The notes under the pieces are model-generated. The model did no database searches. It was given only the letters and a program-made list of their open reading frames with translations, and had not been told where the DNA came from. Shown here one piece after another: positions 48,690 to 62,546 of a DNA stretch of 64,000 nt. The DNA comes from an uncultured Chloroflexia bacterium (lineage in GTDB: Bacteria > Chloroflexota > Limnocylindria > Limnocylindrales > CSP1-4), in the NCBI GenBank assembly GCA_963721545.1, contig CAVRKB010000007.1:388851-452850 (forward strand), written 5' to 3'. The translations under genes and the position numbers were made by a program. Numbering within the stretch: position 1 is the stretch's first letter; each line of letters starts with the position of its first letter.

Positions 48690-49834
48690 ATGGCCCGATC
48701 CGCGGCACCCGGCGACCGCCTCGACTGGCGTGCGCTCAACCGCGCGACGCTCGCGCGCCAGTCGCTGCTGGAACGCTCGACGACATCGGTCGAAGACATG
48801 CTGGAGCGACTGGTCGGGATGCAGGCCCAGACGCCGCACACGGCCTACGTCGGGCTGTGGAGCCGGATCGAGGGCTTCCGGGCCCAGGAGCTGTCGGACC
48901 GGCTCGTCGACCGCTCGGTCGTGCGGATGGCGTTGATGCGCTCGACGATCCATCTCGTGACCGCGCGCGACGCGTGGGACCTCCGGCGCGCTGCTCCAGC
49001 CCGTCCTGGATCGGATGCACCGCGGCCAGTTCGGTCGGCGCCTCGAGGGCGTCGACACCGACGCCGTGATCGCGATGGGCCGCGCCTTCGTCGACGAGCG
49101 CCCACGGTCGTTCAAGGAGCTCGGCGACCACCTCCTGACGCGCTGGCCGGATCGCGACCGGATGGCGCTCGAGCAGTCGGTCCGTACCGGCGTCCCGCTG
49201 GTCCAGGTCCCGCCGCGGGGCCTGTGGGGTCGCAGCGGGCCGATCGCCCACACCTCGATCGAGGCCTGGCTCGGCCAACCGCCACGCGAGGGAGCGACCC
49301 TCGACGACCTGGTCAGGCGCTACCTCGGGGCGTTCGGGCCGGCCAGCGTGATGGACGTCCAGGCGTGGTGTGGCCTCACGCGCCTCGGCGAGGTGATCGA
49401 GCGGCTGCGGCCCAGCCTGGTCGCCTTCCGCGACGAGGCCGGTCGCGAGCTGTTCGATCTGCCGGACGCCCCGCGACCCGATCCCGACACGCCCGCGCCG
49501 CCGCGGTTCCTGTACGACTTCGAGAACCTGCTGCTGTCGTATGCCGACCGCTCGCGGACGGGCGATGCGGCCGTTGCCCGCGCGATCGCCCCCGTGACGC
49601 AGGAGCCGATCAGCACGTTCACGATCGATGGCTTCGTCGCCGGAACCTGGCGGATCGAGCGGGCCGGCAAGGCCGGCAAGCGCAACGTCCGCGACGCTCG
49701 TCATCAAGCCCGTCGTCCGCGTGGCACCGGAGGCGGCTGCCGCCCTGGCCGAGGAGGGTGCCGGCCTTCTCGCCTTCGCGACCGACGGTGCAACCGACGT
49801 CGATGTCCGCATCCTTGGCGTGGACGACCGCTGA
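48690..49834 (+). CDS. Winged-helix DNA glycosylase-like protein, AlkZ/YcaQ (DUF1006) family, copy 1 (two +1 breaks near 48985 and 49690)
   Basis: LNRATLARQSLLERS...LVGMQAQTPHTAYVGLWSRIEGF....L.....DRSVVRMALMRSTIHLVTA is followed by ...FLYDFENLLLSYADR... and ...GTWRIER. It is clearly paralogous to 56592..57623. Confidence 0.75.
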
Positions 49835-49886
49835 CGATCGCAACCGACGCGCAACCGACGGCCTCTTGCCAGATGAGACGACGCAG

Positions 49887-49895
49887 TGTCACAAT
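49887..49895 (+). promoter_or_regulatory. Extended -10-like box TGTCACAAT in front of the Cys-rich mini-ORF
   Basis: Identical 9-mer to the box at 62538 that precedes the apparently leaderless pip gene. It ends 10 nt before ATG 49905. Confidence 0.4.
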
Positions 49896-49904
49896 CCGCG
49901 AACG

Positions 49905-49979
49905 ATGAACGCCTCGAGTTCGCTCACGTGCTCCTGTCCGCACTGTCACGCCGCCCATCAGGGCCGGTGGTGTAGCTAG
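49905..49979 (+). CDS. 24-codon Cys/His-rich mini-ORF (candidate leader peptide) MNASSSLTCSCPHCHAAHQGRWCS
   Basis: ATG lies close to a promoter-like box with no SD. Four Cys codons are present, three of them within six codons. The stop abuts a hairpin and a terminator upstream of the rhodanese gene. It could equally be a chance ORF. Confidence 0.35.
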   Translation: MNASSSLTCSCPHCHAAHQGRWCS

Positions 49980-50019
49980 GCGTGCGACAGAACTGACCGC
50001 ACGCCCGGACCGCTCCACC

Positions 50020-50046
50020 CCCCTGCAATGGCAGGGGTTTTTGTTT
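50020..50046 (+). terminator. Canonical intrinsic terminator
   Basis: CCCCTGC-AATG-GCAGGGG followed by TTTTTGTTT. It lies 31 nt upstream of the rhodanese ATG and 186 nt after the AlkZ-like stop. Confidence 0.7.
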
Positions 50047-50076
50047 GGGCCTCAACCGTCACGAAGGACCTCCACC

Positions 50077-51392
50077 ATGACGACCATCTCCATCACCGAA
50101 CTGCGCGACCGGATCGACGATCCGACCCTGACCATCGTCGACGTCCGGCCGCTGACCGCCTACAACGGCTGGCGGCTCGACGGCGAAGCGCGCGGCGGCC
50201 ACATCCCGGGCGCCCGTGCGTTTCCGGCCGCCTGGCTGCGCAGCGTCGACGAGGCCGAGATCGAGCGATTGCTCGACGAGAAGGGCGTCGTCGCCGGGCG
50301 CGACATCGTGATCTACGGGCACGGCGACGGACGACGTCACGGCCGTCGACGGCCCGCCTCCATCACCTCGGCATCGACACCGTCCGCTCGCTCGACGGTG
50401 GCTCCCGGGCCTGGGCGGCCGATCCCGAGCTCCCGCTCGACAAGCTCGCCCACCACGACAAGCTGGTCCACATCGACTGGCTCCGCGACGTCCTCGACGG
50501 CGGCCGGCCGGAAGCGGCGCCGGCTGGTGCCTTCCGCCTGTTCCACGTCAACTTCGGCGTCCCCGAGGAGTACGCCGAGGGCCACATCCCCGGCGCCTTC
50601 TACCTCGACACCAACTGGCTCGAGAACCCGGTCGACTGGAACCGCCGCTCGCCGGCGGAGATCGACGCCGCGCTCCGCCGCCTGGGCATCACCCGCGACA
50701 CGACGGTCGTCCTCTACGGCCGCGACACGGAGGGTCACGCCAACGAGAAGTGGCCGGGACGGCGGGCCGGGCAGATCGCGGCCACCCGGGCGCTGATGAT
50801 CCTGCGCTATGCCGGGGTGGACGACGTCCGCCTGCTCGACGGCGGCTACGACTGGTGGGTCCGCGCCGGCAACCCGCTCGAGCTGATCGTGCGCGAGCCC
50901 GAGCCGGTCGAGGCGTTCGGCGCCACCGTGCCGCTCCGCCCGGAGGTCATCGTCGACATCGACGAGGCCAAGCAGATCATCGCCGACCCGGACGGGGCGG
51001 CCCTGGTCAGCGTCCGCACCTGGCGCGAGCACATCGGCCAGGTGAGCGGCTACAACTACATCGGGCCGGCCGGCCGGATCAAGGGCGACGTCTGGGGCAA
51101 CTGCGGCACCGACGCGTACCACATGCAGCACTACCGCAACGTGGACAACACGATGCGCGCCTACCCGGAGATCACGGCGAACTGGGCCGAGGCCGGGATC
51201 ACCCCGGACAAGTGGGTCGCGTTCTACTGCGGCACCGGCTGGCGGGCGAGCGAGACCTGGTTCTACGCCTACCTCCAGGACTGGCAGCGGATCGCGGTCT
51301 ACGACGGCGGCTGGTTCGAGTGGAGCCAGGACCCGCACAGCAATCCGATCGAGATCGGTGAGCCGCTCGAGGCGCTGGCGACGCCGGCCTGA
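50077..51392 (+). CDS. Multi-domain rhodanese (thiosulfate/3-mercaptopyruvate-type) sulfurtransferase (two +1 breaks near 50327 and 50350)
   Basis: ATG 50077 follows GAAGGA. Three rhodanese-like modules (...IVDVRPLTAYNGWRL...GHIPGA; ...FRLFHVNFG.PEEYAEGHIPGA; ...LVSVRTWREHIG). The active-site loop FYCGTGWRASE is in the last module. Confidence 0.85.
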
Positions 51393-62537: not shown

Positions 62538-62546
62538 TGTCACAAT
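62538..62546 (+). promoter_or_regulatory. Extended -10-like box TGTCACAAT; pip appears leaderless
   Basis: The box ends 7 nt before ATG 62553 and there is no SD. Confidence 0.45.

Follow-up and report, generated by a model that had tools for sequence, protein, structure and literature searches.

The classical leader-peptide attenuators, which are the trp, his, leu, thr, ilv and pheA leaders of Escherichia coli and Salmonella, follow the Yanofsky model. For cysteine, the described systems are of several kinds. Mycobacteria carry polycysteine leaderless short open reading frames (sORFs), Ms5788A/Rv0815A and others, which make up the 'Cys ribulon' (Canestrari et al., 2020; bioRxiv 10.1101/834739; Mol Microbiol 114:93). 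One of them, Ms5788A, is a Cys-rich leaderless sORF that controls a rhodanese (cysA2) operon, and it acts on translation, as its Cys-codon tract pairs with the Shine-Dalgarno region and there is no terminator (bioRxiv 10.1101/834739). The uORFC-8-2 motif, found before cysS in Rhodobacterales, is a predicted ribosome-mediated attenuator (Brewer et al., 2021, RNA Biol; PMC8632094), and candidate Cys leader peptides precede cys/cbs operons in Mycobacterium, Propionibacterium and Bifidobacterium (Seliverstov et al., 2005; PMC1262725). Here we analyse the leader of a gene encoding a sulfurtransferase with three rhodanese domains, located in a stretch of 64,000 nucleotides (nt) of an uncultured Chloroflexia bacterium (contig CAVRKB010000007.1 of assembly GCA_963721545.1, positions 388,851 to 452,850; hereafter the window). 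This leader is probably a ribosome-mediated transcription attenuator that senses charged tRNA-Cys and controls the triple-rhodanese gene. Leader-peptide attenuation had been suggested at this locus by a reading made from the DNA letters alone (the sequence-only reading), and comparative data support it, since the ORF, the Cys cluster, the hairpin, the terminator and the complementarity of the ORF's 3' end to the 5' arm of the terminator are conserved in more than 55 unique leaders. Conservation, reading frame, codon content, complementarity, alternative folds and linkage to the gene were each established by computation.

Leader architecture

The leader lies downstream of an AlkZ-like gene, which is on the same strand and has its stop at 49834; the promoter is located between that stop and the leader ORF, which is unannotated. 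On re-reading, the -10 box, the ORF, the hairpin, the terminator and the gene start 31 nt further on were all found where the sequence-only reading had placed them, and the 24-codon ORF does contain four Cys codons, three of them between 49929 and 49946. The features of the region, in window positions, are the following.

49866-49895, + strand: sigma-70-like promoter matching the consensus, with a -35 box TTGCCA (49866-49871), an 18-nt spacer and an extended -10 box (TG)CACAAT, which is TGTCACAAT (49887-49895)
49905-49979, + strand: leader short ORF of 24 codons plus TAG (ATG at 49905, TAG at 49977-49979), which reads MNASSSLTCSCPHCHAAHQGRWCS
49929, 49935, 49944 and 49971, + strand: Cys codons of the leader ORF, read from the sequence
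49929-49946, + strand: Cys-codon cluster and proposed stall site, TGC TCC TGT CCG CAC TGT, of the form CxCxxC (C-S-C-P-H-C)
49953-49964, + strand: small 1:2 hairpin, GCCC-AUCA-GGGC in the window, seen in the minimum-energy fold
49959-49970, + strand: region 2, the 5' strand of the putative antiterminator, with CAGGG (49959-49963) facing CCCUG (50021-50025) and GGUGG (49966-49970) facing CCACC (50015-50019)
49979-49986 with 49998-50005, + strand: P2 hairpin of 8 base pairs (bp), with arms GGCGTGCG and CGCACGCC, in RNA form GGCGUGCG-loop-CGCACGCC
50015-50019, + strand: CCACC flank, directly 5' of the terminator stem
50020-50037, + strand: intrinsic terminator, CCCCTGC-AATG-GCAGGGG, with a 7-bp stem that includes 6 G-C pairs and a 4-nt loop
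50038-50046, + strand: U-run of the terminator, TTTTTGTTT
50056-50062, + strand: CCGTCAC motif, just 5' of the rhodanese Shine-Dalgarno sequence
50063-50068, + strand: rhodanese Shine-Dalgarno sequence GAAGGA, about 25 nt 3' of the terminator stem
50077-51392, + strand: sulfurtransferase gene with three rhodanese domains, with a frame shift near 50320-50337 in the assembly

The first G of P2 is also the final base of the leader stop codon TAG. In the 2.6 kb scanned, the terminator at 50020-50046 is the sole terminator-like site, and there are two sigma-70-like sites for 0.2 expected. The assembly comprises 13 contigs and 3.8 Mb, has 71.5% G+C and is scored 60.7% complete; a scan of all of it for a -10 box followed by a short ORF with a C.?C motif and a perfect-stem terminator returned this locus only. 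The combination of a -10 box, a Cys-rich sORF and a terminator exceeds chance. Nine-mers like TGTCACAAT are expected 0.03 times per window, and the second copy that had been reported ahead of a leaderless gene was indeed found, at 62538, 6 nt 5' of the ATG (62553) that opens a long frame, a placement compatible with a leaderless gene.

Conservation in related genomes

The nearest relatives of the host are Candidatus Limnocylindrales/Chloroflexota soil bins, many of them long-read assemblies, and an actinobacterial host is therefore rejected. Rhodanese orthologs are present in 18 of the 24 same-genus genomes searched, and in 14 of these 18 the ortholog is preceded by the promoter, the short ORF, the hairpin and the terminator, with leader peptides such as MDRFTHAMRRCLCPATAEQGRWCS, MTRVTLRCACPCRPSAMQGRWCI and MDRHHAHHCMCHAAAEQGRWCR. 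The Cys-rich mini-ORF plus terminator for which a comparative search had been proposed is thus found conserved before orthologous rhodanese genes. Among 401 family genomes, 23 have a single copy each of a strict 26-nt pattern that spans the ORF's 3' end; the reversed control pattern gave one match. We made a covariance model from 30 unique leaders. Of the 80 closest rhodanese loci in a species-representative collection, 51 reach a score of 54 bits or more with this model, and in the window's own genome it finds a single copy, at 104 bits, the next match having E = 0.5. The model matches 14 of 22 genomes of the same genus and also gives strong matches in five other genera of this family. Across the orthologous leaders, the promoter keeps the TTG of its -35 box and the NANNNT of its -10 box. 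Only three leader-bearing loci have the AlkZ-like gene next to them on the upstream side, and therefore the promoter-ORF-terminator unit belongs to the rhodanese gene.

A scan of positions 49000-51000 against Rfam, with E values up to 10, gave noise and no relevant family match. The same genome was also searched for a Cys regulon: a promoter followed by an sORF with at least three Cys codons gave four matches, of which the other three were unconvincing, the YeeE family was absent when searched for, and no Cys leader was found before a cysH-like gene or six other rhodanese genes in this assembly, scored 60.7% complete.

The leader ORF and its cysteine codons

To follow the reading frame we picked an ATG solely by its position after the promoter, blind to frame. 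In 49 of 53 unique leaders, 8-10 nt separate this ATG from the -10 box, and in 51 of 53 the ATG shares its frame with the invariant CAGGGC; the distance between ATG and CAGGGC is 45, 48, 51 or 54 nt, always a multiple of three. The two out-of-frame leaders (L073 and L122) come from long-read bins with an obvious one-base discrepancy. Over 915 codons, frame 0 contains no stop, frame 1 contains 43 and frame 2 contains two, and every gap inside the ORF in a MAFFT alignment is a multiple of three. The window's ORF has the usual length and frame of the family. Judged by its frame, the leader ORF is not a chance ORF. The 8-10 nt that separate the -10 box from the ATG hold no Shine-Dalgarno sequence and predict a 5' untranslated region of 0-3 nt; because this gap leaves no room for a Shine-Dalgarno sequence, we infer a leaderless or near-leaderless start, both the transcription start site and the translation of the ORF being predictions.

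At least two Cys codons lie upstream of the CAGGG anchor in 55 of 59 unique sORFs, most of which have two or three. They are arranged as CxC (27 sORFs), CxCxC (11) or CxCC (7), and also as CCxC, CCC and CCCC, with CC in some relatives. Cys represents 14% of the codons upstream of the anchor, compared with 0.8% in the long ORFs of the same genome. Both Cys codons are used, TGT making up 67% of those in the cluster compared with 14% in long ORFs genome-wide; this excess of a codon that is rare in a genome of 71.5% G+C may reflect slower wobble decoding or merely a constraint at the RNA level. The last codon of the cluster is 12-18 nt, mostly 18 nt, upstream of GCAGGG/CAGGG, while the flanking residues and the choice of codon vary. 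A ribosome with a given codon in its A site reaches about 12-13 nt further, and a ribosome with the last cluster Cys codon in the A site would cover the 5' arm of the 1:2 hairpin and end 3-4 nt before region 2.

Alternative RNA structures

Pairs were counted in 59 unique leaders aligned to the covariance model. P2 is 93.6% paired, with compensatory changes from U-A to C-G (nine times), from C-G to G-C (five times) and of other types, and with a loop that varies in sequence and length. The terminator is 97.4% paired and its core is invariant, and the small 1:2 hairpin, which is CUGCC-GAGCAG-GGCAG in most relatives, is 93% paired with few compensatory changes. The antiterminator helix GCAGGG:CCCUGC, formed by region 2 and the terminator 5' arm (region 3), is almost invariant, with 99.2% of cells paired, and its few changes are compatible with wobble pairing. 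In L002, the sole region 3 substitution, C to U, retains its pairing with G in either helix; in L072, a region 3 change from C to U is compensated in region 4 (the terminator C-G pair becomes U-A) and makes a G-U wobble with region 2; in L100, CAGGG has become UGGGG and two pairs are kept by wobble. The near-invariance of region 3 is expected of a segment obliged to pair with two partners, a three-way constraint.

In the 3' part of the ORF, synonymous sites are frozen: Ala is GCC in 59 of 59 leaders, Gly is GGC in 59 of 59 and the terminal Cys is TGT in 58 of 59. In the rhodanese gene of the same genomes, the third positions of Gly and Ala codons at conserved residues vary freely, and its Cys codon is TGC in 58 of 58. 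We ruled out that QGRWC, at the end of the ORF, is conserved as a peptide motif: as synonymous sites are frozen, the motif reflects an RNA constraint, and its residues change together with their RNA partners, the terminal Cys being replaced where the helix partner has changed (L038, L106).

The sequence-only reading had proposed that two stretches of region 2 pair with the 5' arm of the terminator and that the two structures are therefore mutually exclusive. Both complementarities, CAGGG to CCCTG and GGTGG to CCACC, are real, but CCACC is not part of that arm. Because it sits 5' of the terminator stem and not within it, the GGUGG:CCACC pairing coexists with the terminator, as seen in the minimum-energy fold, and mutual exclusivity holds only for the 5-bp CAGGG:CCCUG helix. 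RNA folding, which had been suggested as a check, gave the predicted alternative states. When the RNA is masked to 10-13 nt past the stop codon, as by a ribosome at the stop, the terminator forms in 30 of 30 leaders. In a nascent transcript that still lacks the 3' arm and carries a stalled ribosome at the last cluster Cys codon, region 2 pairs with the 5' arm in 30 of 30; by a stricter count, with at least five of the six GCAGGG bases paired with the 5' arm, it does so in 28 of 30, compared with 25% of composition-preserving shuffles. When the 3' arm has been added, the energies of the two states differ by 0-6.6 kcal/mol and the terminator is usually favoured.

Proposed mechanism and alternative explanations

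In the attenuation mechanism that we propose, the transcript would start at the leader ATG, or at most about 3 nt from it, and the ORF would be translated without a Shine-Dalgarno sequence. With plentiful Cys-tRNA, the ribosome would run to the TAG codon and cover region 2 (CAGGG...GGUGG) together with the 5' arm of P2, melting P2; the 5' arm of the terminator would be left free, the hairpin would form, and transcription would end at the U-run, 31 nt before the rhodanese start. With scarce Cys-tRNA, the ribosome would stall in the Cys cluster, where it covers just an arm of the 1:2 hairpin, and region 2 would pair with the newly made 5' arm of the terminator, extending the P2 helix, so that P2 would be the tip of the antiterminator. 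The terminator would be blocked and RNA polymerase would read into the sulfurtransferase gene. Ribosome stalling and the response to cysteine are what we infer from the arrangement of the leader.

Several observations weigh against this mechanism. The antiterminator helix is backed by conservation and wobble-compatible changes, without real covariation. Within the family, the window has the weakest antiterminator, with an exclusive helix of 5 bp and a terminator fold about 6.6 kcal/mol more stable. Without a ribosome, the full-length RNA of about half of the relatives folds into one long hairpin (1:4 plus 2:3), which is antiterminated. A shuffle test on the duplex energy of region 2 with region 3 gave a modest result (median z-score -1.2, with 15 of 57 below 0.05); some of its rows were on a mis-picked ORF, and the fold-based shuffle test given above was used in its place. 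Shuffled sequences also pair fairly well, because region 2 is G-rich and region 3 is C-rich. The Cys cluster lies in a TG-rich stretch, and the other two frames hold 55 and 59 TGY triplets, which is above random, for 128 in frame. In addition, there is a conserved Cys codon two codons before the stop, and stalling there would favour termination. Finally, the genome scans turned up no second Cys-leader locus and thus no regulon-level support. As for the stability of the two folds, the antiterminator of the E. coli trp leader must win kinetically, and the antiterminator described here would, by analogy, have to win in the same way.

The short ORF could instead encode a functional small peptide rich in Cys and His, for example a metal- or persulfide-binding partner of the rhodanese, the terminator serving to set a high ratio of peptide to enzyme, with or without attenuation. 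An ORF clearly kept in frame and rich in Cys, to which one clade adds His (HHHCMCH), with a constant spacing from CxC to the terminal Cys and always accompanied by the gene of a sulfur-transfer enzyme, is what such a peptide would look like. However, outside the cluster the only strongly conserved residues (A-E-Q-G-R-W-C) have invariant synonymous positions in RNA helices, the terminal Cys gives way where its helix partner changes, the N-terminal half has no conserved residues, and the number of cluster Cys (one to four) and their spacing vary, which suits a codon counter better than a metal site; we consider this explanation unlikely. A dual function, in which an attenuator would have a Cys/His-rich product (CxC...C, or HHHCMCH in one clade) that also acts as a small protein taking persulfide sulfur from the triple-rhodanese or delivering metal to it, is distinctly unlikely; if it were true, sensor and partner would be the same 24 codons.

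A different possibility is that the conserved block (GCAGGGCAGGUGGUGU, P2 and the terminator) is a ligand- or protein-binding RNA switch to which the ORF is incidental or secondary. The very high nucleotide conservation from the 3' block of the ORF to the terminator, with its frozen synonymous sites, the covariation of P2 and the presence of a CGTCAC motif (see below) at two places regardless of reading frame would all agree with this, but it does not account for the Cys codons, for indels that come in threes or for an ATG kept in frame and at a constant distance from the promoter. Moreover, the structure is a plain extended hairpin and a terminator, without conserved loops or junctions for a pocket and with a variable P2 loop, and it has no Rfam match even at E = 10, so that we find an RNA switch very unlikely. 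The closest experimentally studied precedent, Ms5788A before the cysA2 operon (bioRxiv 10.1101/834739), would favour a translational attenuator of the mycobacterial type, in which stalling of a ribosome on the Cys codons would free a rhodanese ribosome-binding site that is otherwise sequestered by the leader RNA. This is highly improbable here, given the canonical, invariant hairpin and U-run between the ORF and the gene, and given that in the window copy the Shine-Dalgarno sequence (50063-50068) is beyond the terminator stem, pairs only with the U-run in the fold, and is in a region to which the Cys codons are not complementary. The sequence-only reading had itself raised the alternative that the ORF is fortuitous and that the terminator simply ends the AlkZ-like gene. 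GC-rich DNA does have many spurious open frames and the terminator is 3' of the AlkZ-like gene on the same strand, but a conserved promoter separates the AlkZ-like stop (49834) from the ORF, the leader accompanies the rhodanese gene although nearly all relatives have another gene upstream, and the ORF is in frame in 51 of 53 unique leaders. Neighbour variation and frame conservation thus refute the assignment of the terminator to the AlkZ-like gene, a neighbour in just three leader-bearing loci, and we give this last explanation almost no credence.

Other leaders and neighbouring features

Some rhodanese orthologs have a leader of another design. In six loci (L016, L018, L019, L111, L116 and L133) we found a second, unrelated one, with a GTG 6 nt after a TAGGGT or CAGACT -10 box. 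Its sORF reads MIAH(R/T)SSRDMC(T/M)(C)... and has one or two Cys codons, and its 3' part consists of a GGCCCCG...CGGGGUC hairpin followed by a different terminator (GCxGCGGC plus a U-run). In L012, which is the same as L091 (G009), the usual sORF 5' of the rhodanese ortholog is deleted. A 32-codon frame, MSARARLAQHPCVAGGCCLRRP..., begins there at a GTG located 9 nt beyond the -10 box and crosses the retained terminator, so that a single Cys codon falls in the 5' arm and a tandem pair of them in the U-run (GGUUGUUGUUUG). The design of the six loci suggests that the Cys-ORF leader has been replaced, not lost, within the same genus.

In more distant lineages (L103, L107, L109, L110, L114, L123 and L126; L112, L113, L115, L117, L118, L120, L121 and L132) the rhodanese ortholog has no leader ORF. 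Bins labelled Dormiibacterota or Chloroflexi have a long palindrome, TTGACTATTTGGATTG-N-ATAGTCAACAAT, before the rhodanese ortholog, and bins labelled Gaiellaceae or Actinomycetes have a conserved box, TTTACTTTGTA(A/T)AC, at that place; the palindrome and the box look like transcription-factor operators. With at least three designs of Cys-ORF leader at orthologous genes, plus operator-like palindromes in other lineages, the locus is a good case for studying the replacement of regulatory devices.

Weak matches of the covariance model in other genera (22-27 bits) were rejected as family members, as on inspection they are ordinary terminators, three of them belonging to ilvB leader peptides. The latter (L164, L166 and L167, from small-genome members of the same order) are leaders of an acetolactate synthase (ilvB-like) gene, in which a short ORF rich in Leu and Ile codons (for example LLLIGLLIQPKRG or LLGSLIRPRRG) precedes a strong terminator. 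This order therefore seems to have classical branched-chain attenuators as well.

PF00581 matches three stretches (E = 8e-37) of the protein of 440 amino acids encoded by an intact ortholog of the rhodanese gene. In NCBIfam this protein comes closest to 3-mercaptopyruvate sulfurtransferase, with a match under the curated cut-off, and its C-terminal rhodanese pair most resembles 3-mercaptopyruvate sulfurtransferase/SseA; the active-site loop is CGTGWRAS. In the window, frame shifts break both the rhodanese gene (50320-50337) and the AlkZ-like gene (about 49680-49700), and are most simply explained as base-calling indels typical of long-read bins rather than as marks of true pseudogenes. Of 54 unique leaders, 22 have the sequence CGTCAC, usually as CCGTCAC, just 5' of the rhodanese Shine-Dalgarno sequence and 15 have it in the 5' part of the sORF, for an expectation of about 0.02 per 40 nt. 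Within the sORF it occurs in all three frames, for instance at codons 3-5 in L006, L013 and L051. Its role might be that of an operator, of a standby site or of an RNA motif.

Comparison with known systems

The leader shares with the classical attenuators a short ORF in which codons of one amino acid are clustered, four segments that pair as 1:2, 2:3 or 3:4, the 3:4 pairing being the intrinsic terminator, a stop codon so located that a terminating ribosome would mask segment 2, and a putative antiterminator less stable than the terminator. It departs from them in that the amino acid sensed would be cysteine, the ORF start, at or next to the 5' end of the transcript, apparently has no Shine-Dalgarno sequence, the regulatory codons are mostly spaced (CxC) instead of tandem, and a separate covarying hairpin, P2, is inserted between segments 2 and 3. 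Its target is a single sulfurtransferase gene and not a biosynthetic operon, and its host belongs to the Chloroflexota.

As in the Cys ribulon, the predicted transcript serves sulfur or cysteine metabolism and has an unannotated, apparently leaderless Cys-rich sORF as its first cistron. As with Ms5788A, the sORF precedes a rhodanese gene and stalling on its Cys codons would be the signal, and the rise in sulfurtransferase that we propose at cysteine shortage would parallel the Ms5788A-cysA2 case. In contrast with Ms5788A, the output is an intrinsic terminator, and the window's Shine-Dalgarno sequence lies 3' of it and is not complementary to the Cys tract. The ribulon was searched for by at least two consecutive Cys codons, which the window copy (CxCxxC) lacks and some relatives (CC, CxCC, CCC, CCCC) have. 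It differs further from our element in phylum, the two have no sequence homology, and no multi-locus regulon was found in this genome.

Compared by description, uORFC-8-2 (PMC8632094) also has conserved Cys codons in an upstream ORF followed by an intrinsic terminator with a U-run, but its Cys codons are in tandem, at positions 14-15 and inside the first stem, and its target is cysteinyl-tRNA synthetase in Alphaproteobacteria. The leaders of Seliverstov et al. (PMC1262725) are likewise short ORFs before cysteine genes, with runs of Cys codons near the stop; they have no conserved terminator hairpin and a Rho-dependent mechanism was suggested for them, whereas the leader described here has a full set of terminator and putative antiterminator. 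The literature searched contained no paper on such Cys leaders in Chloroflexota, and the papers on leaderless translation made no mention of Limnocylindria. The element would therefore represent a new family, a new host lineage and a new target gene for a well-known type of switch.

If the attenuation mechanism is correct, the "empty" gap of 240 nt becomes a regulatory gene and the triple-rhodanese is flagged as part of the response of abundant soil bacteria to cysteine limitation. Experimental evidence for Cys-sensing short ORFs comes solely from mycobacteria, in which they control translation; such ORFs would then extend to an uncultured soil lineage of Chloroflexota, and the complete terminator/antiterminator set would supply the component reported missing in surveys of actinobacterial Cys leaders. 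Leaderless translation and classical attenuation are apparently combined in this leader, which would show how easily such switches arise in GC-rich bacteria.

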